Assembly (NCBI GenBank): GCA_943787795.1
Contig: CALSNU010000008.1
Span: forward strand, 1-40,718
Length of the DNA stretch: 40,718 bases
Direction of reading: 5' to 3'
From: an uncultured bacterium
GTDB lineage: Bacteria > Planctomycetota > UBA1135 > GCA-002686595
A model generated the notes under the pieces. The model had not been told where the DNA came from. It made no database searches and saw only the letters and a list, made by a program, of their open reading frames with translations. A program made the position numbers and the translations under genes. How positions within the stretch are numbered: the stretch's first letter is position 1; every line of letters begins with the position of its first letter. Positions 2,667 to 18,173 of this stretch are shown here, piece by piece.

Positions 2667-4331
2667 TCACTGGAACGTGACGCAGAGGGAGCCTGTCAGG
2701 TTGTTGCCCCGGGGGCCCTGGGTGTCGCGGTGCCAGGCCTGGAAGTACCAGGTGTCGCCCGGGAGCACGGCCACGGCGCCGGTCCCCAGGGGGATAGCGG
2801 TCAGGTCCACGGTGAAGTCCGCGCGGCCGGCGGCGCTGGACAGGGTGACCTGCTGGAGGAAGCGTCCGAGCACGCCGCCGATGCAGAGGTTGCCGTTGCT
2901 GTTGCCCGCAGCGAAGGGCGTGAAGACCGACGTCCTCGAGGCGAGGAGGAGCGTGGCCTGGGTCGGCGGGAGGCTGGCGGCCGCGAGGGTGCAGTCGTTC
3001 AACGGGACGGACGGAGAGCCGAGCCCGGTGAGGGTCCCCGTGAGGCCGGTGGAGTTCGGCACGGCCACGCAGGTCGGGTCGGGGGCGCCAAGCGTCTCGG
3101 TGAGGGGCAAGAGGTACGCGGCGCCGGCCTGGTCGCCGAGCTCGTCCTCGAGGAACGCGCCCACGATCGCGCGGCCGCCGTCCAGGGCCAAGGCGTAGCC
3201 GAAGGCGTCGCCCGGCTCGGGGTCCGTGGGGACGAGCTTGCCGAGCTCCAGCCCCGTGGCGAGGTCGAACTCCCAGGCGACGCCGCCGATCGCGGCGGAG
3301 GGGGCCCCCACGAGGACCCGCTCGTCGTCCATGGCCAGGGCCGACCCGAAGGCGGTCCCGAAGGGGTCCTCGGAAGGGATCAGCTCGAAGAGCTGGCCGC
3401 CCGTGGCCACGTCGAACACGTACACCGCGGGGTCCCCTGGGATGAAGCCGCTGGACCGGAGGCTCGAGACCGCGGCGCGCTGCCCCTCGAGGTCGACGTC
3501 GGTGCCAAAGAAGTCGATGGGCGCGCTGACGTCAGGCGTGATCTTCCTCAGCTGCTGCCCCGTCGCCGCGTCGAACAGGTACGCGGCGCCCGACGAGACG
3601 CCGTTGCTGTCCTCCCCGTACGCGCCGACCAGGGCGAGCCCGCCGCTGATCGCGACGCTGATCCCGAAGTAGTCGTCCTCCTCGCCGTCGGCGGCGAGCA
3701 GCTTCGCGACCTGCTGCCCCGTGGACAGGTCGAACACGTAGGCGGACCCCGAGTTCTCTCCGAGGTCGTCGTCCCCGAAGGCGCCGACGATACCGAGCCC
3801 ACCGCCCACGTCGACCGCCGAGCCGAAGCGGTCCTCGGGAGCGCCGTCGGTCGGGAGGAGCTTGCGCAGCTGCTGGCCGGTCGCGACGTTGAAGACGTAC
3901 GCGGAGCCGGAGTTGGGGCCGTTGTCGTCGTCGCCCCCGGCGGACACCAGCGCCGTCGTCCCCTCGAGCGCGATGTGGTCGCCCAGGAGGTCGAAGGCGG
4001 CCCCGTCGAGGGCGGTGAGCTTGCGAAGCTCCGCGCCGGTGGCGGCGTTGAAGACGTACACGGAGCCCGACTGGGACCCGTTGTCGTCATCGAGGCGGGC
4101 ACCCACGATGGCGGTGCCCCCGCTGATGGCCACGTCCACGCCGAAGTAGTCCTCCTGGAAGCCGTCCGAGGCGATCAGCTTCAGGGAGGTCTGCGCCCAT
4201 GCGCCCGCGGAGAGGGTCGAGAGGGCGAGCGCCCAGAGGGAGGCCTTCAGCGCACGGGCACGCCGCCGTGGAGCCCTCGCTGTGGGTCCGGGTGCGGTCG
4301 CCGTGGGGGGGAGAGCGTCGGCGATCGTCAT
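2667..4331 (-). CDS. FG-GAP (integrin-alpha-like beta-propeller) repeat secreted protein with the same C-terminal domain
   Basis: Signal peptide ending AWA-Q. About seven repeats of D.FG..VAI.G..A.VGA..DD..G..SG.AYVF. C-terminus GDTWYFQAWHRD...LCVTFQ. Start codon uncertain. Confidence 0.9.
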   Translation of the reverse strand: MTIADALPPTATAPGPTARAPRRRARALKASLWALALSTLSAGAWAQTSLKLIASDGFQEDYFGVDVAISGGTAIVGARLDDDNGSQSGSVYVFNAATGAELRKLTALDGAAFDLLGDHIALEGTTALVSAGGDDDNGPNSGSAYVFNVATGQQLRKLLPTDGAPEDRFGSAVDVGGGLGIVGAFGDDDLGENSGSAYVFDLSTGQQVAKLLAADGEEDDYFGISVAISGGLALVGAYGEDSNGVSSGAAYLFDAATGQQLRKITPDVSAPIDFFGTDVDLEGQRAAVSSLRSSGFIPGDPAVYVFDVATGGQLFELIPSEDPFGTAFGSALAMDDERVLVGAPSAAIGGVAWEFDLATGLELGKLVPTDPEPGDAFGYALALDGGRAIVGAFLEDELGDQAGAAYLLPLTETLGAPDPTCVAVPNSTGLTGTLTGLGSPSVPLNDCTLAAASLPPTQATLLLASRTSVFTPFAAGNSNGNLCIGGVLGRFLQQVTLSSAAGRADFTVDLTAIPLGTGAVAVLPGDTWYFQAWHRDTQGPRGNNLTGSLCVTFQ

Positions 4332-4489
4332 GGCGGCGGCTGGCTGGCGAGGATGGGGGAGGCCGCCGGACTCAGCAGAGCTCCGGCCCGTTCCAATGGT
4401 CGATCGTACCGTCGGTGCGACCGGATGCCTCGAAGTCTCGAATTGCGCGCGGACCTGGGGCCACGCCAGCGGGCCCCGCGGGTCGGAGC

Positions 4490-7378
4490 CTACCGGGGCT
4501 CCACTGGACCGCGGAGGATCTCCTCGATGGTCCCGTCGGGGGAGAGCATCAGGGTCGTCGGCAGGGGCAGCCGCGCCAGGTCGACCACGTCCTGGATCGT
4601 ACGGACTCCGGGCCTTGGGTCTCCGGCGAGGTGCACGCCGAGGGCGGGGGCTCGCTGGCCCAGCAGCTCGAGCGCCCGGGCCCGGTCCGAGGGGGCGTCC
4701 ACGGAGACCGCGATCACCCGCATGTCCTCGCCTGCGTCCCACTCCTCAAGGAGCGGGAGCTCGGCCACGCAGGGTGCGCAGTAGCTGGCCCACAGGTTCA
4801 GAGCGACGCGCTCGCCGGTGGCGGCGGGGTCGATGAGCACCTGCGCCCCGCTCGCGTCGAGCACCTCGAAGGGCGCGACCTTGTCGCCCACGTTCACGAG
4901 GAGCCCCCTGGGCTTGGGGTCCTCGAGGACCCGCGGGACCGCGCCGTAGGAGGCGGCGACGCCCGCCCCTTCCACGAGCAGCGCGCGGGCGCCGGGCTTC
5001 AGGTCACCGAAGCTCTCGACGGCGCCGCCGGGCCAGCGGACCGTCACCGTGGCGGCCGTGGCGCCACCGAGCCCGAAGATGAGCTCGGGCGCCTGGCAGG
5101 AGATGAAGCCAGCGCCGCGGGAGAGCACCTGGCTCACCTTGCGCTCGCCGGCCACGACCTCCACCTGGGCGCCGATCGCCTCGGCGTTGCCGGTGGTGGC
5201 GCGCAGCTTGACCTTCACGAAGCCCGGCGCGGTGCCGAGGTCGTTGCGATACATGGCGTGGCGCTCGCGCTGGGTCTCGTGGACGAAGAGGTCCACGTCC
5301 CCGTCGTCGTCCGCGTCGAAGGCGATCACGGCGCGGCCGTCATTGGAGGAGTCCGCGCCGGAGAGGTCCGAGAGGTCGAGGAAGGACCCCGCGCCGTCGT
5401 TGATGAACAGCTTGTCCCGCTCGTTGCCGCTGAAGGAGCGGCCCTCGGCGAAGATCTGCCCGTTGTGCCGGGCCAGGAAGCCGTCGTTGCCGACCTCCTC
5501 GCGGGAGAACTTGCCGGACTCGGGGGTGGAAGAGCAACTCGACGCCACCACGTGGCGCCAGTAGGTGCTTCATGTGTCGAAGGCGAGCTCCCCCGTCACG
5601 AACCCGTTCGTGCAGAAGATGTCGAGGTCGCCGTCCAGGTCCACGTCGAAGAGCGCCGGGGACCAGGCCCAGCTGGCGCCGATGCCGCCGCGGTCGCCTG
5701 GGATGCGGGCGAAGCTGTCCCCGTCGCGGGTGAAGATGGAGTTGCCGGCGGCCAGCTTCTTGAGCAGGGCGTGGGTCTCCTTGTCGATGTCCTCCTCGAG
5801 GCGGCCGAGGATCCGGCTGCCCGCCGTGGAGGACATGTTCGAGACGTACAGGTCCAGGGAGCCGTCGCCGGTCAGGTCGCCAAAGGAGGCGCCCATGCCG
5901 CTGCCCTTGTCGACCACGCCCTGGGCGTCGGAGCCGTCCAGGAAGGTGCCGTCCCCCTGGTTGATCCAGAGGCGGTTGGAGCCGTAGTCGTTGGCGACGT
6001 ACAGGTCCGCGTCTCCGTCAAGGTCCACGTCCGCGGACGCCGCCGCGTAGCTCCAGCGAACGTCCTTGATCCCCGCGGCCTCGGCCACGTTCTCGAAGCC
6101 GAGGAACGCGCCGTCTTCGTCGGTGCCCAGGTTCCGCAGGAGCCCGTTGGGGGAGCCGTTGGTGGCCTCGGTCCATGAGTTGTTGTGCTCCACGTCCACC
6201 CGGCCATAGCCGCAGATGTGAACGTCCAGCCACCCGTCGCCGTCGAAGTCGAGGACGGTGAGGGTGTAGGCCACGAAGGGCTCCTGGAGCCCGGGCCCGC
6301 CGGGGGCGTCGGTGAACTGGCCGCCGCCGTCGTTGAGGAAGATCCGGCAGCGCTCGCCGCCCATCTTCCCGCCCGCCAGCGGCCAGCCGGTGAGCCCCAC
6401 CATCAGGTCCTGGTCTCCGTCGTTGTCGCAGTCGAAGAAGACCGCGCCCGTGCCGCGGTCGGGGCTCCCCACGCCGCGCTCGTCGGCCTCGTCCGACCAG
6501 GTGCCGTCGGGCTGGGCGATGTAGAGGAAGTTCTGGTCGTCGCTGGGGACGAACAGGTCCCAGTCGCCGTCGCCGTCCACGTCGCCCGCGGCGGCGCCGT
6601 TCCAGTGGAAGCTGTTGTTCGCGTCCGTGCCGAAGCGGGCCCAGGTGTGGGCGAGCCCTGTGGACGCGGCGACCTCCGTGAAGAGCGGCGCCGAGCGGCG
6701 CTCCACCTCCCACTTGTGCAGGAGGAGCTGGTCCACGAGGTAGCGTCCGCGGGTGCGGGTGACGCGGGCGTCGCCGCGACCGTGCACGGAGACCATGCCC
6801 CCTGAGGCGTCCACGCCGGTGATGTGGATCTTCAGGTCGAGGCGCCCCCAGCGGGAGCGGCCGCGCTGGAAGCTCGCACCCTTCACCTTCCAGAGCATCG
6901 AGTCCACGCTGCGCCACTCGCCGAGCAGGGAGCGGAGCGACGCCATGAAGCCCTCGCGTCCGACGCCGGCAGAGGAGGCCACGTCGTACTTGATGCGCTC
7001 CACGCCGAGGGGGAGGGCCGTGCGGCTCGCCGCGGCGTGTCCCACCATGGCGTGCGCGGCGAGCTCCGGTGAGAACCACTCCTGGGCCTGATCGAACTGA
7101 CGCTTGCGCAGGACCTCGGCGAACTCGATCAGGCTGTCCGCCAGGGCCTCGGTCTCGTCCTCCACGGCCTCGACGCTGGTGACCGGGCGGTCCGGGGAGG
7201 CGATGCCGTCGGGGAGCTCGACGGGAACGTCCAGGGAGGCCGTTGGCGCGCGTGCGCCGGGGGCCTCCACCGAGGGGGTCTCGTCCCCGCCGCCGCATCC
7301 CGGCGCGGTGCCGAGAACCAGGGCCAGGGAGAGAGCGATGAGCGGGGCGGTGACAGGTTGGGCGGGTCGGGGGATCAT
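4490..7378 (-). CDS. CRTAC1-like lipoprotein (FG-GAP/VCBS repeats + ASPIC/UnbV + TlpA-type thioredoxin domain) with in-frame TGA at 5572-5570, candidate selenocysteine U603
   Basis: The 5570..7840 and 4490..5551 ORFs share one frame and are separated only by TGA: NGFVTGELAFDT-TGA-STYWRHVVASS. DxDxDGDxD repeats occur on both sides. The downstream part has AIGAQVEV...LIFGLG...VTVRWP (ASPIC/UnbV) and NLWASYCAPC (CxxC). Lipoprotein-like signal TAPG-C. SECIS-like hairpin follows the TGA. Confidence 0.8.
5533..5572 (-). promoter_or_regulatory. Putative bacterial SECIS element (UGA + hairpin)
   Basis: mRNA reads UGA AGCACCUAC UGGCGCCAC-GUG-GUGGCGUCG AGUUGCU: 9-bp upper stem with two G-U pairs, GUG loop starting 18 nt after UGA, and a possible lower stem AGCA/UGCU. 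Confidence 0.7.
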
Positions 7379-7696
7379 CTGGGCGGACGATACGAGAGGA
7401 GATGGGACCAGTGAGAGCTTTATCGGAAGGTGGGCGCGTCGGTCTTCTCTGCCAGACGGCAGATTCTGGGCGCGAGGCGCTCTGGGCTCTCCCTGGAACT
7501 CCAGGGGCCGTGCACCGCCGGTCGGGGTGCGACATCTGGGCCGTCCCGGGACACGGGGCGGCGGCCGGCAGAGGGTGGCGTCCGCTGCCTTCTCCATCGG
7601 GCAGCAGGATCGTCGTGTCGCAGGGCCCTTGGGCCGAGGGGGCATGGGGCGGTGGGCCCATTGCCCGGGGGGAGCGGTCGTGACACCATCCGACCC

Positions 7697-8734: not shown

Positions 8735-9235
8735 TCAGTCCTCGTCGCAGCAAGGGGTGCCGCGCAACGCGGTCACGTGGGCGGTGACCAGCAGCAGCCC
8801 GCCGGCCATGGTGAGCAGGCTCGCGAGGGGGACGAAGAGGTTGGATTCCTGCACCGAGGCGCAGCATTCGTCTACGCAGCCCGTGGACTCCTGGAGCGCG
8901 AGCCAGCTGGGACAGGGCAGGTTCACGCCGACGGTCTGGGCCCAGGCGGACCCGGGCACGGCGAGGCCGAGGAGGATCAGCACCGACCCCACGGTGGCCA
9001 GGGCGGTGAGCACCCGTCGGACCTGCGGCGTCACGCGCCGCATGTTCCGCCGCAGGAGCGAGATGGCCGCAGGCAGTGAGACCGCGGCGAACGCCCAGTG
9101 GGTGGCCGGAGAGGTCCAGACGCCGCCGATGAGCGGGGCGAAGGCGAGGATGACCGGTGCCGCCATGCAGTGGATGGCGCAGGTCCCTGCGGCGACCACG
9201 CCGAGGCGGTCCGCGATGTGGGGTGTCAGTTGCAT
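8735..9235 (-). CDS. MerC-family membrane protein (metal uptake-like), Cys-rich
   Basis: N-terminal DRLGVVAAGTCAIHC motif typical of the MerC domain, four TM helices, TAH near the C-terminus, extra CVDECC and terminal CCDED. Confidence 0.8.
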   Translation of the reverse strand: MQLTPHIADRLGVVAAGTCAIHCMAAPVILAFAPLIGGVWTSPATHWAFAAVSLPAAISLLRRNMRRVTPQVRRVLTALATVGSVLILLGLAVPGSAWAQTVGVNLPCPSWLALQESTGCVDECCASVQESNLFVPLASLLTMAGGLLLVTAHVTALRGTPCCDED

Positions 9236-9260: not shown

Positions 9261-9941
9261 TCACCCTTCCTCGATGGCGGCTTGCGCGCGGATCCATCGC
9301 AGCCGCCGGGCTGCGGGCTCGAAGGTCGGCTTCACCTCGCTACATGTCTCGTAATGCCGCTCGGCGACCTCGAGTTCCCCGAGATCTTCAGCAATCAGCC
9401 CGCGGTGATAGTGGCTCCGCCATGAGGTCTCACCGGCGAGGGCGTCGGCCCGGTCCAGGGCCTCGAGCGCCTCGGCGTAGCGCTGCTCCACGAAGAGCAG
9501 CGCCGCGTGGGCCTCATGGAGGCCTGGCGAGTCTGGCCGGGTCCTCAGCGCGCTCTCGACCCGGCGGTGTGCCCCGGCCAGGTCGCCGCTGCGGGCGGCC
9601 ACCTGCACCGAGAGCTGGACGGCGTCGACGTTGTCGGGCTCGGCCTTGAGAGCCAGGTCGAGCAGCGAGACGGCCCGGTCGGCGCGGCCCGTCTCGATGG
9701 ACAGGGCCGCGTCCGCGATCAGGGTCGGGACGTGCTCTGGGTGCTGGAGGCTCAGGGAACGCAGGTCCCGTGCGAGCTCCGGTGCGGGAGCGTCAGGGGC
9801 CTCGAGCAGCTGTCCGAGCCGCTCGTCCGCCGACGGTCGCTCCGTGAGGGGTGGCGTCAGACACCCGGTGAGCGGGGCGCTGAGGGCCAGGCCGACCAGG
9901 AGAGCCGGGAGGGCCGGGAAGGAGGGGGTCGATCGAGGCAT
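9261..9941 (-). CDS. TPR lipoprotein, TadD-like pilotin
   Basis: Lipobox LTG-C, several TPR helical repeats, last pilus gene of the tad cluster. Confidence 0.75.
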   Translation of the reverse strand: MPRSTPSFPALPALLVGLALSAPLTGCLTPPLTERPSADERLGQLLEAPDAPAPELARDLRSLSLQHPEHVPTLIADAALSIETGRADRAVSLLDLALKAEPDNVDAVQLSVQVAARSGDLAGAHRRVESALRTRPDSPGLHEAHAALLFVEQRYAEALEALDRADALAGETSWRSHYHRGLIAEDLGELEVAERHYETCSEVKPTFEPAARRLRWIRAQAAIEEG

Positions 9942-9955
9942 AGGTACGGACCGGA

Positions 9956-10942
9956 TCAAGGCTGCCCCGTCAGGGCAGAGCCAGCGAGGCGAACGAACTC
10001 GGCGACCGCCGGACCAAAGGTCCACACGAAGACGCCGGGGAGGAAGCAGATGACGAGGGGGAAGGCGAGCTTGGTCGGGAGGACCTGGGCCCTCTGGATA
10101 GCCTCCTCGCGGCGGCGGCCCCACAGGTCCGTCGCCTGGCGGCGCAGGGTCTCGCCCAGGCTCGCCCCCTGGCTCTCCGCGTGGATCAGGGCCGAGCTGA
10201 AGGCGAGCAAGGAGGGGACATCGAGCTCCTGGGCCACGGCGCGGATGGCGGTGGCCCGGGGGACGCCGGCCATGGTGGCCGAGCGCATCCGGGCGAACTC
10301 GACGGCGAGCACGCGCTCCGGGCCGAGGGCCTGCTCGACCCGCTGTACCGCGGCGTCGAAGCCCATGCCCGACTCGACGAGGCTGGCCAGGAGGCTGAGG
10401 ACCGTCGGCATGTCTCGCTCGACCTCCTCCACGCGGCGCTGCCGCTGCTGACGGACCCACACCACAGGCAGCATCGTCACGAGGAGGGCGATCAGCCAGG
10501 TCGCCGCGCGCATGACCGGGACGAAGATCGTGGCGAACCCGCCGGGCACGCCCTCCAGCCAGCCGACCGCGGCGTCCGTGAAGCCGGAGGCGTCGACCAT
10601 CAGCGCCAGGAACGCGGCCGAGAGCGCGGCGCCGATCATCCACAGCACGAAGCGTGAGGGAGCCGACGCATCCGTCATGCCCGCGCTGATGAGCCAGCGC
10701 CGCAGCCACCCGGCGCCAGGCGTCACGCCCGAACCCGGCGGGAGGGGGGTCGCGGCGGTGACGGGCGCGGTGGGAGCCTCGGACGAGCCCTCCCGAAAGA
10801 GCACCGAGGCCACCCGGCGGCGCCGACGGGCGTGCCGCAGATAGAGGGCAAGGAGCAGCAGCCCGCCGGCGCCGGCCGCGAAGACCCACGGCTGGGGCTC
10901 GCTGAGCCCGAGGGGGAGGGCCGCGCTGGAGGGGGACTGCAC
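9956..10942 (-). CDS. tadC: Tad inner-membrane platform protein TadC (T2SSF family)
   Basis: T2SSF domain (VERDMPTVLSLLASLVESGMGFDAA...GASLGETLRRQA...KLAFPLVICFLP), directly after tadB. GTG start at 10942. Confidence 0.88.
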   Translation of the reverse strand: MQSPSSAALPLGLSEPQPWVFAAGAGGLLLLALYLRHARRRRRVASVLFREGSSEAPTAPVTAATPLPPGSGVTPGAGWLRRWLISAGMTDASAPSRFVLWMIGAALSAAFLALMVDASGFTDAAVGWLEGVPGGFATIFVPVMRAATWLIALLVTMLPVVWVRQQRQRRVEEVERDMPTVLSLLASLVESGMGFDAAVQRVEQALGPERVLAVEFARMRSATMAGVPRATAIRAVAQELDVPSLLAFSSALIHAESQGASLGETLRRQATDLWGRRREEAIQRAQVLPTKLAFPLVICFLPGVFVWTFGPAVAEFVRLAGSALTGQP

Positions 10943-10944
10943 GG

Positions 10945-11757
10945 TCAGACCTCGACCTGAATGGTGCGCGAGATCCAGGCCACGCCGATGGCCTGGAGGA
11001 AGACGGAGAGACCGACCGCAGAGAGGCCCAGGTCGTTGGACAGGAAGCCTTCCACGCGGTCGGGGTACTGCTTCCACATCAGGAAGGCGAGCCCGTAGGT
11101 GATCGCGAGGATGCCGGCCACGGAGGCCTGGGTCTCCACGGCCTGGGAGCCCGAGCGCCGGATGACGTCGACCCGGTCGCGGATGGTGCGGGCCACCTCG
11201 CTCAGGGACTGGGCCACGCTACCGCCGCTGTTGAAGTGCGATGCGAGCGTGAAGGCGAAGAGCCGGACCCCCTCCTGGGGGTACCGATCCACGACGTCGA
11301 AGAGGACCGTGGCGGGGGCGTCGCCGATCCGGATGCGATCGCAGATCTCGTCGAGGATCCCGGCCGTGCGGCCGCGGGTCTCCTTCGCGGCGGTGTTGAG
11401 GCTGTCCACGAGCGCGGCGCCTGCGCGGAGGGAGGCCACCACCAGATCGAGGGCCGAGGCCAGGTCGAGCTCCAGGGCCACGTCCCGACGGGAGGCGTGG
11501 GTCTTGAGGGCCACGTGGCAGCCGACGCCGAAGAAGGCGCCCACGGCGCAGGCGATGATGGTGGGCAAGCCTCCTGCGAGGCATGCGAGGGCCGCGGTCG
11601 GGGCGGCGACCAGGCTGATGAGGGCCCGGCTCCTCGCCCGCTCCCGGCCCTGGGAGGGACGCCCGGCCTCCGTTCCGGCGCCGCTCCCGCCACGGATGAA
11701 GTGCACCAGCGCACCGAGGAGGACGGCGAGGGTGAGGCTCAGGAGGATGTCCAGCAT
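10945..11757 (-). CDS. tadB: Tad inner-membrane platform protein TadB (T2SSF family)
   Basis: ALDLVVASLRAG...GGSVAQSLSEVARTIRDR motif, directly after the ATPase. Confidence 0.88.
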   Translation of the reverse strand: MLDILLSLTLAVLLGALVHFIRGGSGAGTEAGRPSQGRERARSRALISLVAAPTAALACLAGGLPTIIACAVGAFFGVGCHVALKTHASRRDVALELDLASALDLVVASLRAGAALVDSLNTAAKETRGRTAGILDEICDRIRIGDAPATVLFDVVDRYPQEGVRLFAFTLASHFNSGGSVAQSLSEVARTIRDRVDVIRRSGSQAVETQASVAGILAITYGLAFLMWKQYPDRVEGFLSNDLGLSAVGLSVFLQAIGVAWISRTIQVEV

Positions 11758-11769
11758 GGCGACCGGGGC

Positions 11770-13179
11770 CTAGCGGCCCCCGAGAGCCTCTCCCGTCGGC
11801 GAGGCGAAGATCTCCAGGGGGATGTCCTCGCCTCCCGCTCGCAGGGCGTGGACGAAGCGCGGCACGATCCCGGTGGCCTCGAAGCGGCCCATCAGGCGGC
11901 CCTCGTTCGAGCCGTAGGAGCGATAGACGAACAGGTCCTGGAGCAGGGGCGTCCCCGACTCCATCCCGGTCACCTCGGAGATCGACGCGATGCGGCGTAC
12001 GCCGTCCTCGAAGCGCCGCACATGAACGACGAGGTCGAGCGCGGAGGTGATCTGCTCCCTGATCGCCCTTGAGGGCAGGTCCGCGCCCGCCATGAGCACC
12101 ATGGTCTCCAGGCGTGCGAGGGCGTCGCGCGTGGAGTTGGCGTGGACGGTGCACAGGCCTCCCTCGTGGCCCGTGTTCATGGCCTGCAGCATGTCCAGCG
12201 CCTCCCCCGAGCGCACCTCGCCCAGGATGATGCGCGAGGGACGCATGCGCAGGCTGTTGATGAGGAGGTCGCGGGCGGTCAAGGTGCCGCTGCCCTCGGC
12301 GTTCGGCGGACGCGTCTCCAGGCGAACCACGTGCCGCTGATCCAGGGTCAGCTCGGCGGTGTCCTCGATGGTGACGACGCGCTCATCCTCGGGGATCGCC
12401 TCGGCGAGGATGCCCAGGAGCGTCGACTTACCCGCGCCCGTGCCGCCGGAGAGCAGCACGTTCTGCCGCGTCCGGACCGCCGTGGACAGCAGGGTCCACA
12501 TGGCCTCGTCGAGCATCCGTAGCTTCAGGACGTCCACGGAGCGGAGCCGGTTGCGCCCGAAGCGGCGAATGGAGAGCGTGGGCCCGTCGATGCTCACGGG
12601 CGGGATGGTGGCGTTCATCCGGCTGCCGTCCGGCAGTCGCAGGTCCACCATGGGCGAGGACTGGTCGATCCGGCGCCCGGAGGACACCGCCAGCCGCTCG
12701 ATCATGCGCAGGAGGTGATCGTTGCTGGCGAAGCGGACGTTGACCTGCTGGAGCTTGCCGAAGCGCTCCACGAAGACCTGGTCATGGCGGTTGACCAGGA
12801 TGTCTGTGATGGCGGGGTCGAGGAGCAACGGGCTCAGGGGGCCGAGCCCCGTGGCCTCCTCGCTGAGCTCTTGGGCGAGCTGCTGCTGTTCGGTCTGGTT
12901 GAGGGGGAGCGACTCGGTCTGGAGCAACTCCGCGACCCATTCGTTGACGGCGACCTCCAGCTCGTCAGGGCCAAGGCCCAGGAGCCCGTCCTCCTGCAGC
13001 TCGGCGATCATCCTCGCGTGCAGGTCGGCCTTGAGCGCGGTGTAGTCGTCCTGACGCGGGACCTCCTCGGCCGCCGAGCTTCCCTGGTTCGGGCCCGTGG
13101 TCCGCTGGGTGACCGCGTTGTCCTTCGGGCGCGGGCGCCGGAAGAGAGAGCGGGTGTCGAGGAGGTCATTGCGGTCCAT
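11770..13179 (-). CDS. cpaF: Tad/Flp pilus assembly ATPase CpaF/TadA
   Basis: Walker [46 protein letters not shown]. Confidence 0.96.
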
Positions 13180-14416
13180 GGTGAGCACCCCCTTGGCTGG
13201 CAGCCTGGACCCTGGACAGGTCAGGCTGAAGTTCAGGGGTGACGGGGTCGCTCACCAGCGACGTGTTCGCCGACACGGCGTCCTTGACGACGCGGTTGAT
13301 CGCGCGCTGCCACGCGCCCATTCGGTTGATCGAGATGAACCTCGGCTTGCCGGAGTTCGCGGCGGAGAGGACGGCCTTGGAGTAGGGCACCACGTGATCC
13401 ACGGGGCGATCGAGCCGGGTGGCGACGTCGGTCGGCGTGATCCCGAGGCCGCGGCCGGGGTGGGTCCGGTTGAGGATCACCCGCGACCTGGAGCGTTCGA
13501 CGCCCACGCGCTCGAGGACCCGCAGCAGCTCGGCGGAGCCGTTGATCGTGGGGCCCGAGTCGTTGAGCACGGTGAAGGTCAGGTGGGAGAGGTCGAGGAT
13601 GGCCAGGGTGACGCTGTCGAGGAGGGGGAAGGTGTCCACCACGACGTAGTCGTAGGCCCGCCTCGCCACCGAGATGACCCTGGAGATCACGGCCTCGTCC
13701 ACCGCGGCGGCGTCGATGGCGTTGGAGGGGGCGGGGAGCAGGTGAAGGCCCGAGGCGTGCTCGGTCACCAGGCCCGCGAGGAGCCGGGCGTCGAGGCGCT
13801 CCACCTCTCTGGCGGCGTCGGCGAGAGTGGCCTCAGGGGAGAGCCCCAGGAGGTCCGCTGCGACCCCGTGCTGGATCGACGCGTCCACCAGCAGGACGGA
13901 CCCCGAGCGGGTCAGTCCCACGGCGGTGTTGATGCCCACCGTCGACTTGCCGACGCCTCCCTTGCTCCCCACAAAGGACAGCACCTTGCCCACGCTGCGG
14001 GGGCTCTCTTCCTCCCGCGCGAGGATCTCTCGATCGACCAGTTCGCGCACCTCCGGCCTCGAGAGCGGGCGGCTCAGGAAGTCCCGGAGGCCCGAGCGCA
14101 GGAGCTCGACCAGACCCGAGCTCAACGCGCCGTCGCCGTCGAACTCCTGCCTCCGGTAGGTGGCGACGACGACGGGAGGGTGGTCGACCCCGCGCAGCTC
14201 CTCGGCGAGCCGCTTGGCCTGGGTGATGTCCTGGCCGAGCTCCACGAGGAGCAGGTCCACGGGGCGCTCGGTGGCGTGGCGGATCGCGCGGCGCTCGTCC
14301 TCCTCCACGTGGAGAACGAAGCGGACGTCCTCACCGAGGTCGTCGGTGGAAGCCGTGAACTCGGACACGAGGCCCGGGTCATGGGTGAGGAGGAGTGTTT
14401 GGATGGTGCGCTGCAC
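13166..14416 (-). CDS. cpaE: Pilus assembly protein CpaE/TadZ (receiver-like domain + MinD/ParA ATPase)
   Basis: N-terminal receiver-like domain, deviant Walker A GSKGGVGKST, YDYVVVDT. Overlaps the cpaF start. Confidence 0.9.
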   Translation of the reverse strand: MQRTIQTLLLTHDPGLVSEFTASTDDLGEDVRFVLHVEEDERRAIRHATERPVDLLLVELGQDITQAKRLAEELRGVDHPPVVVATYRRQEFDGDGALSSGLVELLRSGLRDFLSRPLSRPEVRELVDREILAREEESPRSVGKVLSFVGSKGGVGKSTVGINTAVGLTRSGSVLLVDASIQHGVAADLLGLSPEATLADAAREVERLDARLLAGLVTEHASGLHLLPAPSNAIDAAAVDEAVISRVISVARRAYDYVVVDTFPLLDSVTLAILDLSHLTFTVLNDSGPTINGSAELLRVLERVGVERSRSRVILNRTHPGRGLGITPTDVATRLDRPVDHVVPYSKAVLSAANSGKPRFISINRMGAWQRAINRVVKDAVSANTSLVSDPVTPELQPDLSRVQAASQGGAHHGPQ

Positions 14417-14455
14417 GGCAGGAAATCCAGGGCGATTGGGGAGGGAGAGAGCGGG

Positions 14456-15757
14456 TCAGCGCGCGAGGACCGGTGCGAGCAGGCGGGCGTCCGTGGGGGC
14501 CACGGGCGGGAGTGAGAGGTCGAACGCCGCGGTGGGTTGAGCGGTGGCGTTGGCCGGCGCGACGGTGTCATCGAGCTTGATCCCCACGAGCCGCAGGGTC
14601 GGGCCCGCCTCGACGGCGGCGACCTCGAGCTGGACCGCGACGAAGCCGCGGATGCGCAGGGCGCCGGCCCCCGGCTCCCGGACGTGGATGGAGGCATACG
14701 CGAGCCCGTCGAGCTCGGGGGAGGGCTCGGAGGGGATCAGGACCGGGCCCTCGGAGACCAGCGCTCCGAGGCGCGGGGCCCCCGCCACGGCCTCCCCGGC
14801 GGCGGTCCCGCCGATGTCGCCGTTGGCGTCGAGGACCGCCGTGAACTGCCCGCGTACGGGGATTGCGGCCCACTCCACCGCGTCGAATGAGAGCCAGCGC
14901 ACCGTCCCCGGCGTCCCGCCCGTCGCCAGCGGAGCGAGGCCCGGTAGGCCAGGCCGGGCGAGGCCCGCGGCGGTCACAGGGCGCGCGTCGGCAATGGCAG
15001 CAGCCCGGACGGTGATGCCGTCCCGGCGGGGATCGTAGACGGCGGGGTCCGGCGTGCCGAGGGCCGCGGAGCCGAGCCCGAAGAGGTACGGCAGCGTCGG
15101 CCCCGATGAGCTGACCCCGGGGACGCGGTCGAGCGGTTCGGTGGTCCTTGTGCGTCGGAGGCGCGCGAGGAACGAGGGGCCCCTGTCCTCCGGGATGAAG
15201 TCCAACCGCGAGTAGTCGCCGGATTCGACGTGCCAGTCGACCCTGGCGGGGTCAACCGGGTCGAGGGCGGTGAAGGCGCCCGCCACGAGGTCGCCGCTCT
15301 GCGCGTTCGAGCCCACGTTGAGCTGGAGCGTTGGGATCCAGGGCGCTGCGGGGTCAAGCACGCCGCCGATCGGGTCATTGACGCCGCTGACCCCGGTCCC
15401 GAGGACGAGCCCGGCGCCCAGCAGGAACTGGTCGGGGCCGGTGGCGAGGTCGAGGTCCTCGTCGAAGACGAGCTGCGCGAGGAGCGAGGCCGACTGTCGC
15501 CGCTGCTGGTCCGGGTCGGGGACCGCCGCGTCGCGGCCTGACAGGCCCTCCAGGGCCGCCACGTCGGCGCTGGTCTGCATCTGCAGCTGGGTGGTGCGGG
15601 CGATGCCCAGGTCCACCACCACGGCGCAGAGCCCGAGGAACGCGATGAAGAAGAACGCGAAGAACAGCACGACGACGCCGCGCCGACCCGGAGGGGCCGC
15701 GCGGAAGCGCTCGCGGGTCAGCCCGCGGGGTCTTGAGGTCGCACCGGTCGTGGTCAT
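14456..15757 (-). CDS. tadG: TadG-like pilus assembly protein/pseudopilin
   Basis: RRG-VVVLFFAFF...VVDLGIARTTQLQMQTSADVAALEG matches the Tad N-terminal motif. Confidence 0.8.
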   Translation of the reverse strand: MTTTGATSRPRGLTRERFRAAPPGRRGVVVLFFAFFFIAFLGLCAVVVDLGIARTTQLQMQTSADVAALEGLSGRDAAVPDPDQQRRQSASLLAQLVFDEDLDLATGPDQFLLGAGLVLGTGVSGVNDPIGGVLDPAAPWIPTLQLNVGSNAQSGDLVAGAFTALDPVDPARVDWHVESGDYSRLDFIPEDRGPSFLARLRRTRTTEPLDRVPGVSSSGPTLPYLFGLGSAALGTPDPAVYDPRRDGITVRAAAIADARPVTAAGLARPGLPGLAPLATGGTPGTVRWLSFDAVEWAAIPVRGQFTAVLDANGDIGGTAAGEAVAGAPRLGALVSEGPVLIPSEPSPELDGLAYASIHVREPGAGALRIRGFVAVQLEVAAVEAGPTLRLVGIKLDDTVAPANATAQPTAAFDLSLPPVAPTDARLLAPVLAR

Positions 15758-15761
15758 CTGG

Positions 15762-16868
15762 TCAGCGCTCGCTGGGGTCTTCGTTCCGCGCCCTTGGGAC
15801 GGGCGTCAATACGCGCTCGCCGCCGACGAGGGTCTCGATCACGGTCATGTCGAGTGGCTCGTAGCCGGCGGGCAGGGTGGGGGGGCCGTCGTCCTCGGAG
15901 GGCTCTTCAGCGTCCTCCTCGTCGTCCAGGAGGCCGGGCGTCAGGCTCTCGGCCGGGTCGTCGGGGTGCCCGGAGCGAGCGACGCACGTGAGGTCGGCCT
16001 CGAGCCGGATCGCGGCCATGAGCGGCGCGACCTCCGGCGGTGCCAGGGCGATGATCATCTCCTGAACGGGACGGGTGCCGTTCACCTGGCCGGCCGTGAG
16101 GCTGGAGCTGGAGGTCGGGATGAAGCGGGTCTCGATCGGCGAGACGACCACACCGTTCTGGACGATCACGTCGACCCTCGCGCGCTTGGAGTCCTTGGGG
16201 CCCTGCGCGCCCCCGGACTTCGGGAGCAGGTCAGAGTAGACCCCGCTGAAGGACGAGCCGTCGCCCGCCCTCGTCACCGCGGCCGAGGGGCGTGGGCTCT
16301 CAAGATCGCGGGCGGCGATCAGGTCGAAGCGGTCGCCGGGATTCAGGCCGATGATCCCACGAACGAGCTCGACGTCGATGCGCAGGGCGCGCTTCCCGGG
16401 GGGGATCCCGCCCGCGAGTCCGGGGCGGGTGCCCTTGGGCAAGAAGTCGGCCTCGGTGAAGGCGAAGCCGGGCCGCTTGGCCCTCGCCATGACGCGCCCG
16501 ACGATTCCGCTCGTCCCGACGAGCACATCGTTCTCGCCGACGAACGCCTCGTCCAGGTCGATGAAGCTGAACGCGCCACGCCTGGTGTCGAAGAGATCGT
16601 CCCTGGTGACTCGCGCGTACGGCTCGATGGCACGCGCCGAGATGAGGACGCGGATCTTGCCCTCGGCGGGCGGCTGGATGGTCGGGCCCGTGATCGGGCC
16701 GGCGGCGGCGACCGGCTCTGGTGTCGGCGAGAAGAGGCCGAAGGGGTCGCGGAGCGGTTGTCCGCTGACGCGCAGGTAGAGGAGCCAGCCCAGGCCACCG
16801 ATCAGGACGGTGAGCAGGATGAGGGGGCCGTACGGGCGTCGACGGGATCTGCGGGGTGCAATGGCCAT
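15762..16868 (-). CDS. cpaB: Flp pilus assembly protein CpaB/RcpC (SAF domain)
   Basis: N-terminal TM segment, then VLISARAIEPY...IVGRV...IPPGKRALRI...GLNPGDRFDLI. Confidence 0.85.
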   Translation of the reverse strand: MAIAPRRSRRRPYGPLILLTVLIGGLGWLLYLRVSGQPLRDPFGLFSPTPEPVAAAGPITGPTIQPPAEGKIRVLISARAIEPYARVTRDDLFDTRRGAFSFIDLDEAFVGENDVLVGTSGIVGRVMARAKRPGFAFTEADFLPKGTRPGLAGGIPPGKRALRIDVELVRGIIGLNPGDRFDLIAARDLESPRPSAAVTRAGDGSSFSGVYSDLLPKSGGAQGPKDSKRARVDVIVQNGVVVSPIETRFIPTSSSSLTAGQVNGTRPVQEMIIALAPPEVAPLMAAIRLEADLTCVARSGHPDDPAESLTPGLLDDEEDAEEPSEDDGPPTLPAGYEPLDMTVIETLVGGERVLTPVPRARNEDPSER

Positions 16869-16890
16869 GGGAGGGGCGAGCGCTACGGCG

Positions 16891-17775
16891 CTAGAGGATG
16901 AGCTCGCGCCGGAAGAGCGCCTGAGCGGCTACGAGGCGACGAAAGGGGCGTACTTCGGTGCCCAGGGCTTCCTGGCGACCCAGCCCGAGGGAGCCGGCGT
17001 ACGGCCCGGCGCCGTCCGGCCCAGGGCCGAGGATCACGTTGGATCCGCCGAGCGAGATGTCGGCCTTGATCGCCCGGCTCTCGCCGGCGTCAGAGATCAG
17101 GTAGGCCGTCAAGGCGGCGGCCTGGAAGGGGACGTTGAGGCGTACCGCGGCGATGCCGCCCCGGGAGATGGCGAAGGCACCGGGCTGTCCGTTTCCGGCG
17201 ACCTCTTCCAGGACCGGGGCCAGCTCGATGCTGGTCTCCAGCCCGGTGGTCGGGTCCCGCTCAAGGATTCGCGGGACAAGCACGGACAGGCCTGTGGGGC
17301 TGGTGGAGGAGTCGATGAGCGCGCCGGGCATGTGCAGGAGCCTGCGGGTCCCGCCGGGGGTGGCCACGGTGGAGGTGATCATCAGCGGCCGCAGGGCCTG
17401 GTTGACCACGGGCATGCTGGCGAAGAAGGCCTCGAGCGCGGGGCCAGGCGGGGTCGCGACGAGGTCGACGACCACGTAGTCCGCGTCATACACCGCCCCG
17501 CGAAAGCCCGGCTCGGCGAGCGCGTCCTGGAAGCCGAAGTCGGCCGGGAGGGGATACAGCGCGAACTCGCGGGCGGCGAAGCGCGCGGCATCTTGCGCGG
17601 CCTGGCTGACGGCCATCCAGCGTCCCAGGGAGAGCATCCCGGCCAGGACGAGGTAGAGGCTGAGCGAGATGAGCGCGAACTCCACGGCGACGCCCCCAGC
17701 TCGGAGTTCTCCGAGCCGGGAGTGGCGGATCGCCGCGCACGTGGCGAGCGGCGTTGTGCTCAGGCCTGTAGCCAT
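16891..17775 (-). CDS. tadE: TadE-like pseudopilin
   Basis: RAG-GVAVEFALISLSLYLVL...QAAQDAARFAARE matches the TadE motif. Confidence 0.85.
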   Translation of the reverse strand: MATGLSTTPLATCAAIRHSRLGELRAGGVAVEFALISLSLYLVLAGMLSLGRWMAVSQAAQDAARFAAREFALYPLPADFGFQDALAEPGFRGAVYDADYVVVDLVATPPGPALEAFFASMPVVNQALRPLMITSTVATPGGTRRLLHMPGALIDSSTSPTGLSVLVPRILERDPTTGLETSIELAPVLEEVAGNGQPGAFAISRGGIAAVRLNVPFQAAALTAYLISDAGESRAIKADISLGGSNVILGPGPDGAGPYAGSLGLGRQEALGTEVRPFRRLVAAQALFRRELIL

Positions 17776-18173
17776 TTCAAAGGGAGGAGGGCGAGGAGCC
17801 CGAGGAGCATGGCCGGCGCGTAGGCGATCTCGGTCTCGCCCAGCCGCCGGGCCCGCAGGGCCAGGACTCCGCCGAAGATGGAGGTAGCCAGGAAGAACGC
17901 GAGGAAGGGGAGGAGCCCCAGCGCAGGACCCAGCGCGATGGCGAGCTTCGTGTCGCCCCCTCCGAACCAGCCGAGGCGGAAGAGGGGCAGGGTGATGAGC
18001 ATCGCCGCCACCATGCCCAAGGCCGCTTGGCCCCACCCGAGCGGGTGGAGGCCAGCGGCCGTAAGGGCGAGGGCGCAGAGGAGCAGCCCGCCCGGGATCG
18101 CGTTCGGGATCCGCCGGCTACGCAGGTCGAAGGCCGAGGCCAACGACACGGCGCCCATGGCGAGGAAGAACAC
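17760..18173 (-). CDS. cpaA: Prepilin peptidase, A24 family (CpaA/TadV)
   Basis: FDLRSRRIPN, FGGGDTKL and IAYAPAM motifs with two catalytic Asp. Start uncertain: GTG18173, or an upstream out-of-frame ATG near 18201. Confidence 0.9.
   Translation of the reverse strand: MFFLAMGAVSLASAFDLRSRRIPNAIPGGLLLCALALTAAGLHPLGWGQAALGMVAAMLITLPLFRLGWFGGGDTKLAIALGPALGLLPFLAFFLATSIFGGVLALRARRLGETEIAYAPAMLLGLLALLPLKWLQA

Follow-up and report, generated by a model that had tools for sequence, protein, structure and literature searches.

Bacterial selenoproteins whose selenocysteine (Sec) insertion sequence (SECIS) lies inside the open reading frame (ORF) show an in-frame UGA, a fitting hairpin, a distribution confined to genomes with selA, selB, selC and selD, and annotations that truncate the product at the UGA. 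The consensus of the bacterial element (bSECIS) has a loop of 3-9 nucleotides, a G in the first two loop positions and a spacing of 16-37 nucleotides (PMC13188914, in the sections covered here). We report a gene with the same features on the minus strand of a 40,718-nucleotide stretch of DNA (contig CALSNU010000008.1, hereafter the window) from an uncultured member of the Planctomycetota. An earlier analysis of the letters alone (the original prediction) had proposed that this gene encodes one exported FG-GAP/ASPIC-UnbV lipoprotein in which an internal UGA is read as Sec603, with a C-terminal TlpA-like domain as a possible built-in reductant.

The protein combines traits of several described systems. 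CRTAC1/ASPIC-UnbV proteins (PDB 9etn, PF07593, PF13517) likewise consist of a propeller followed by an ASPIC fold, are exported and carry DxDxDG loops, whereas the protein studied here has in addition an NTF2-like domain, a Sec-bearing helical lid and a TlpA-like domain; when our family profile (A1) is compared with CRTAC1, the matches cover the repeat segments and not the Sec helix. The thioredoxins TlpA, ResA and DsbE share with our C-terminal domain the thioredoxin fold, the WxxxCxxC motif and a later L-P-T motif. Unlike them, this domain is a C-terminal fusion in a 960-residue protein, scores below the family cut-offs and has the Sec of the same chain as its proposed client. Among selenoproteins, SaoX, SaoB and SaoC are exported or lipoprotein members that were found as UGA-truncated gene pairs, but they have ABC substrate-binding folds, a fixed neighbourhood, Cys homologues and no fused thioredoxin (bioRxiv 10.1101/2022.07.06.499078, in the parts covered here). 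The description of known bacterial selenoproteins as mostly small and cytoplasmic, given in the original prediction, must therefore be qualified, as SaoX and SaoC are exported selenolipoproteins (same source and parts). Our protein also departs from bacterial selenoproteins in general by its FG-GAP scaffold, found in none of the 119 families of PMC13188914, by a Sec outside CxxU/UxxC, and by Cys homologues that are rare rather than abundant.

A single gene interrupted by one TGA

The 962-codon frame at 4490..7378 (minus strand) contains one internal stop, the TGA of codon 603 (5572-5570), in the context NGFVTGELAFDT*STYWRHVVASS, and terminates with TAG. Minus-strand translation bears out the two ORFs that had been noticed in one frame, split by this single TGA, and the DxDxDG repeats on both sides of it. 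With the TGA read as Sec, as the full-length orthologues with one TGA suggest, the locus forms a single coding sequence of 962 residues. The G+C content at third codon positions (GC3) is 0.95 in both gene halves. Among the matches listed, the TGA is unaltered in three sequencing-run contigs (X15#5, X5#21 and X9#28; 4 of 24 runs); X15#5 alone spans the TGA with at least 31 letters per side, and its study is possibly the source of this DNA. As these matches are contigs, they carry no information on expression level or strand.

Among 40 relatives, each of the best 17 places (44-100% identity, source included) has exactly one TGA. The same TGA is found in orthologues of 42 to 91% identity and in other phyla; database homologues that are 88% identical in the matched region carry the name Planctomycetota, and TGA members are present in Ca. 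Multivorans. At the aligned column, 156 distinct loci have TGA (101), CAG (19), GAG (7), TGC (7), GAC (4), GCG (4) or other codons (14), and none has TAA or TAG. Asp601, two residues before the site, is kept in 101/101 TGA loci, and at codons +1 to +6 the residues seen in read-through homologues are retained (Trp in 82 and Arg in 79 of the 101), which argues against a stop followed by a restart. The downstream half had been described as lacking an obvious ribosome-binding site. Accordingly, no Shine-Dalgarno-like word (GGAGG, AGGAG or GAGGA) occurs in the 21 nucleotides from the TGA in any of the 101 loci, and the first in-frame Met of our gene after the TGA is residue 709.

The effect on annotation is evident from the 120 best database homologues: 98 have residue 602 as their last one, and the remaining 22 read through. 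The truncated ones are labelled 'VCBS repeat-containing protein' at NCBI; read-through homologues occur at about 50% identity. In 128 read-through proteins the residue at the Sec column is Glu (42), Ser (18), Asp (16), Ala (15), Asn (9), Gln (6), Cys (5) or another one (17). Cys counterparts therefore exist as a minority (5/128 proteins, 7/156 loci), far from the abundance on which selenoprotein assignments usually lean. The alignment proposed in the original prediction thus gave the expected TGA in Sec-using genomes, while in non-Sec homologues the site is mostly Glu, Ser, Asp, Ala, Asn or Gln and seldom Cys. The source genome itself contains three TGA and two Gln paralogues. Most of what pattern scans of contigs and metagenomes found were remote FG-GAP proteins, since these patterns contained Cys or only DxDxDG.

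Some local features of the TGA loci deserve mention. The codon before the TGA (5575-5573 in the window) is skewed to codons that are rare in GC-rich genes, Leu being TTG in 29/40 and Thr being ACA in 19/37 cases among the 101 loci, and Leu at this place is never TTG in sense-codon paralogues (0/19); such a rare codon may tune ribosome pausing or Sec insertion. In one Akkermansiaceae genome, all 12 family matches have TGA, mostly with TTG before it. GC3 dips at codons +9 to +13 in TGA loci only (0.50 at +11, against 0.82 in sense loci), which perhaps keeps the RNA just behind the SECIS unstructured. One Sec member (L213, genome G065) has its frame broken about 20 codons past the TGA, with the ASPIC and thioredoxin parts resuming in another frame.

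A SECIS-type hairpin follows the TGA

A hairpin of 9 base pairs, two of them G-U, with a GUG loop lies at 5540..5560 (minus strand), as indicated by folding and by comparison across homologues. Its stem begins at +10 and its loop after 18 nucleotides; the original prediction had the base pairs and the loop right and placed the start of the hairpin where in fact the loop starts. Taken alone the hairpin is not unusual in DNA of 70% GC (z -1.77 for 50 nucleotides, 11/200 shuffles folding equally well; z -0.50 for 60 nucleotides), and its significance comes from the comparison across homologues and not from the stability of the single sequence.

The bSECIS model fits 95/101 TGA loci, against 52.7 expected from synonymous recoding. 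In sense loci the fit is at chance (19/40, with 19.3 expected; 15 of the 55 rows of this control were dropped as remote). In a later genome set it fits 33/36 TGA and 3/12 sense rows, five rows repeating earlier loci. Over the seven stem pairs of 85 distinct TGA rows, 73.4% are paired compared with 59.0% after shuffling, and double changes number 88 against 42.6 +/- 7.0 (0/500 shuffles), and these values lie above all slid controls. The control slid by -3 reaches 64% paired, in part owing to a subgroup whose loop is shifted one codon downstream, and the number of stem pairs with any double change is not above shuffles (6 versus 6.2). Stem pairing in the 40 sense rows that share the peptide motif is at chance. 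The covariation asked for in the original prediction is therefore present after TGA and lacking after sense codons, and this comparison indicates that the hairpin is the SECIS of the gene.

Rfam has no match to the hairpin, the only match in 4300-7600 being raiA at 17.5 bits (cut-off 101.3). The hairpin also scores as a terminator-like site, a reading that was rejected since such sites are no more frequent than chance predicts (1 found, 0.8 expected) and the T-tail is broken.

The TGA form follows the Sec machinery

The selA, selB, selC and selD genes that the original prediction called for are all present in the source genome: selA, selB and selD score above their cut-offs, and ARAGORN finds a tRNA-Sec on contig C3, which is the sole tRNA with a UCA anticodon found in the genome. 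The selD gene carries a TGA of its own (ACAG*AAKM). TGA is also the main stop, ending 1687 of 2014 long coding-like ORFs (rough filter), so that there is no general recoding; a genome-wide recoding of TGA was ruled out on this ground together with the tRNA result. A DsbD_TM domain is encoded in the genome as well.

A family match is present in 45 of 151 genomes of the source phylum and a TGA-bearing one in 35, with the TGA position confirmed at the aligned column in 34 of the 35 (the remaining genome, G073, fell outside that check). The TGA-bearing genomes have selA in 35/35 and selB in 34/35 cases, compared with 113/151 and 111/151 overall. In the 35 genomes negative for both selA and selB there is no TGA member; two of these genomes carry the family (G045 and G149), and both have TGC. 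The corresponding Fisher p of 4.5e-5 is overstated because related genomes are not independent. In the phylum of Ca. Multivorans, 21 of 121 genomes have TGA members and 20 of the 21 have selA; the one without a selA match (G268) has selB, a TGA-bearing selD and tRNA-Sec. A genome without selA, selB, selD and tRNA-Sec (G286) has Ala at the site. Of the rows used, one with TGA (G239) and one with a sense codon (G214) come from unpublished genomes, and dropping both alters no conclusion.

Side by side with this distribution we observed that one TGA member (L327, G212:C1:1155036-1158321) ends about 450 nucleotides upstream of selA on the same strand. In another genome (G190:C2:40345-41812) selA is in three pieces and the family member there has Glu at the site, which reflects either Sec loss in progress or an assembly error. 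Ten loci form a Cys subgroup, D-Y-C-T-x-F-W-x-H-D, without thioredoxin; this is the form in three Sec-negative genomes, and it occurs in Sec-positive ones too.

Loss of Sec and loss of the thioredoxin CxxC

Among members that bear the thioredoxin domain, CxxC is intact in 44/46 with Sec, 2/4 with Cys and 9/87 with another residue; in this last group, 63 have no Cys at the motif (six of these unresolved) and 15 have one. A later genome-only set gave 30/32 Sec versus 0/4 non-Sec members with intact CxxC. The closest non-Sec clade, 14 proteins with Glu, Leu, Asn, His, Ile or Arg at the site, has lost the thioredoxin domain entirely, and the Cys protein P0006, near that clade, keeps CQPC. On a FastTree tree of 192 rows (10 of 202 dropped, nine as remote and one as frameshifted), the site changes state at least 29 times. 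In independent pairs differing in Sec, CxxC differs in the same way in 7.1 and in the opposite way in 0 of 14 (median p 0.016). This co-loss points to a redox relay between Sec and thioredoxin, and lends independent support to the idea of a built-in reductant.

Subgroups with a Cys beside the Sec were also noticed (C-U, U-x-C and U-xxxx-C, in six, seven and two loci). Those checked are mostly without the thioredoxin domain and may resolve the Sec locally. In three genomes, a thioredoxin-less Sec member (L209, L210 and L212) has ferrochelatase directly after it.

Domain organisation and predicted structure

By inspection of the sequence rather than by a predictor, the protein starts with a signal peptide with a probable lipobox at Cys28 (TAPG-C; 7295..7378), from which export and lipid anchoring at Cys28 are inferred; a simple regular expression finds a lipobox-like motif in 63/86 truncated homologues that start with Met. 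All features of the protein lie on the minus strand. An AlphaFold2 model of residues 52-962, computed with Cys in place of Sec603, has a predicted local distance difference test (pLDDT) score of 95.2 and a predicted template modelling score of 0.93.

The propeller, ASPIC/UnbV and thioredoxin parts that had been proposed are recovered, and an N-terminal NTF2-like domain, missed originally, is added to them. This domain (about residues 67-229; 6692..7180; pLDDT 96.9) matches 3rob_A with a VIA Z of 14.2 and a root-mean-square deviation (rmsd) of 2.5 over 129 aligned residues, and many further NTF2-like folds match. It is followed by the CRTAC1-like FG-GAP beta-propeller with DxDxDG loops (about residues 230-713; 5240..6691; PF13517 and PF01839), which spans the TGA and superimposes on murine CRTAC1 (9etn_A) with Z 42.8, rmsd 2.6, 464 aligned residues and 22% identity (Foldseek E 1.9e-25). 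NCBIfam 20.0 has no match to the propeller part. The DxDxDG motifs have near-invariant Asp residues, and Ca binding is predicted from them. Next come the ASPIC/UnbV domain (residues 734-796; 4991..5179; PF07593, E 1.4e-13) and a TlpA/ResA-like thioredoxin domain (about residues 828-959; 4502..4897), assigned by NCBIfam and by Foldseek matches to ResA/DsbE structures. The latter scores 38.8 bits with TlpA (E 8.4e-10, cut-off 230) and 38.3 bits with ResA (E 1.2e-9, cut-off 170), far under the cut-offs for naming it a TlpA or ResA equivalog. Its redox motif CAPC in WASYCAPC (C867-C870; 4769..4780) co-occurs with Sec among homologues.

In the model, helical insertions of the propeller form a lid, and residue 603 (5570..5572) opens helix 603-614 within the lid insertion that comes after the strand following a DxDxDG loop. 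The position of the Sec was correctly predicted, while its placement in a plain loop gives way to this helix start. Judging from loop topology and from what is generally known of FG-GAP propellers, residue 603 presumably lies on the propeller face opposite the Ca-binding loops. Residues conserved in at least 80% of 104 homologues are Y391, N407, N463, D464, N514, R522, W570, W572, N591, W607, R608, D680 and R682; these polar and aromatic residues are as expected for a predicted shared pocket.

Neighbouring genes

The next gene (2667-4331, minus strand) encodes an exported FG-GAP_2 repeat protein whose C-terminal domain has no Pfam family; it adjoins the orthologue in one relative (L009) and not in most others. 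Elsewhere in the window are a MerC-like gene (8735-9235) and a Tad/Flp pilus cluster (9261-18036, minus strand) with TadE, TadG-like, ParA-type ATPase, T2SSE ATPase, T2SSF and TPR proteins.

Discussion

Codon conservation, correlation with the Sec trait, SECIS covariation and a confident one-chain model all support the proposed Sec decoding of one exported FG-GAP/ASPIC-UnbV/TlpA-like protein. That UGA603 is decoded as Sec by SelB and the SECIS within one chain is, from comparative evidence, close to certain. The family is in our analysis an uncatalogued selenoprotein family with a new scaffold and a known decoding mechanism. It is not in Table 1 of the 2026 catalogue (PMC13188914), which includes the families of Haft and Tolstoy 2025, and ASPIC, UnbV, CRTAC1, FG-GAP, VCBS or propeller do not occur in sections 5, 6, 8 and most of 7 of that work. 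The original view that CRTAC1/ASPIC-UnbV proteins are not among the classical selenoprotein families accordingly agrees with the catalogues compared, in the parts covered. The selenoprotein models of NCBIfam 20.0 give no match, apart from one of the thioredoxin domain to NF041054 at 12 bits (cut-off 300). Terms for the family were not found in deep-Sep (PMC12013277, main text and four supplements), BSepDB (PMC13326102, main text and one supplement) or SelCysML (PMC13745706, main text), nor was the family found in the covered parts of the Haft and Gwadz preprint. A literature search over titles and abstract starts, with subscription journals mostly outside it, yielded no paper on the family; Haft and Tolstoy 2025 and the groundwater candidates of Deng et al. 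2026 were not covered by it, and a mention there is possible.

We propose that SelB, acting on the in-frame hairpin, would insert Sec at UGA603 of one exported, probably lipid-anchored protein. The Sec would stand at the start of the lid-insertion helix of a CRTAC1-like propeller, beside an invariant Asp and a conserved Trp-Arg pair, where its selenolate, at the helix N-terminus, would most likely be a redox-cycling nucleophile that acts on a ligand bound in the propeller pocket. Re-reduction of Sec603 would fall to the tethered TlpA-like CAPC (C867/C870), with electrons supplied by a membrane carrier of the DsbD/CcdA type. Where paralogues have lost Sec, CxxC or the entire domain is usually gone as well, and such proteins have probably turned into non-redox binders. 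We consider this relay as a whole, from the Sec on a pocket ligand to recycling by CAPC and the DsbD/CcdA-type feed, somewhat better than an even bet.

Several observations weigh against it. With domain-bearing rows only, the paired comparison on the FastTree tree falls to 4.5 versus 0 of 9 pairs (median p 0.06, not significant). The thioredoxin domain is not seen in 12/58 Sec members (one frameshifted, one cut by the locus end), and two Sec members have the domain without CxxC, including a source-genome paralogue with a degenerate motif. Sampling in the CxxC count is uneven, since its Sec rows were taken from genomes whereas protein databases supplied most of its sense rows. Unlike in most selenoproteins, Cys is a rare counterpart at the column, so that the position is not catalytic in every family member. 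Finally, among 95 flanking ORFs of TGA loci no family is common beyond close kin, which leaves no pathway clue.

The strongest alternative accepts the Sec and gives it another role, that of a soft-metal ligand or redox-sensitive switch in a binding or adhesion protein, with a thioredoxin that keeps it reduced or serves other clients and with no turnover. The polar and small residues that replace Sec in most homologues (Glu, Asp, Ser, Ala, Asn or Gln) fit a helix cap or a site of ligand contact. Lectins, integrins and other FG-GAP propellers are binders, as is CRTAC1, the closest structure, and the Cys often found beside the Sec in thioredoxin-less members is in keeping with this role too. However, CxxC retention tracks Sec, which implies repeated oxidation of the Sec, and conservation is high at many polar and aromatic positions that lie outside the repeats. 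We regard this explanation as possible, and as the less probable of the two.

Far less room is left for a TGA that is a real stop, with two polypeptides assembling one propeller and the second re-initiated at a GTG six or seven codons downstream. TGA is indeed the main stop of the genome, and in 66/101 TGA loci the earliest possible start is a GTG, at codon +7 or +8. But this GTG sits within the hairpin, the column shows no TAA, TAG, frame shift or spacer in 101 loci, codons +1 to +6 are conserved as in read-through homologues with no Shine-Dalgarno-like word, and the TGA is limited to Sec-using genomes, so that we judge such a split highly improbable. Read-through by a non-Sec route, be it suppression with Trp or Cys or a variant genetic code, could draw on the scarcity of Cys counterparts and on the rare codons before the TGA. 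It is just as improbable, since no tRNA other than tRNA-Sec was found with a UCA anticodon, TGA mainly serves as a stop in this genome, the hairpin agrees with the bSECIS model and is TGA-specific, and the trait follows selA and selB. A pseudogene or assembly error, for which nothing was found in favour, can be dismissed in view of the TGA conservation across orthologues, other phyla and run contigs and of the equal GC3 of the halves.

Returning to the Sec relay, the wider picture would be that of cell-surface selenoenzymes forming a large, old family with many copies per genome, spread over Planctomycetota, Verrucomicrobiota and the phylum of Ca. Multivorans, with a pocket Sec whose chemistry Cys seldom takes over and which is recycled by a thioredoxin of the same chain; we give this about even chances. 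As an addition to the bacterial selenoproteome the family has a new scaffold and is widespread, with TGA members, often more than one per genome, in 35/151 and 21/121 sampled genomes from two phyla. The family lies in a blind spot of standard searches because these need abundant Cys homologues, here about 4%. Many database pairs of a 'VCBS repeat protein' and a downstream fragment would be one gene, and the co-loss of Sec and CxxC offers a first testable biochemical handle on bacterial CRTAC1/ASPIC-UnbV proteins. If the proposal is true, the selenoprotein family would represent the first branch of the CRTAC1 fold made up of redox enzymes, and searches built on Sec/Cys pairs would miss whole selenoprotein families.

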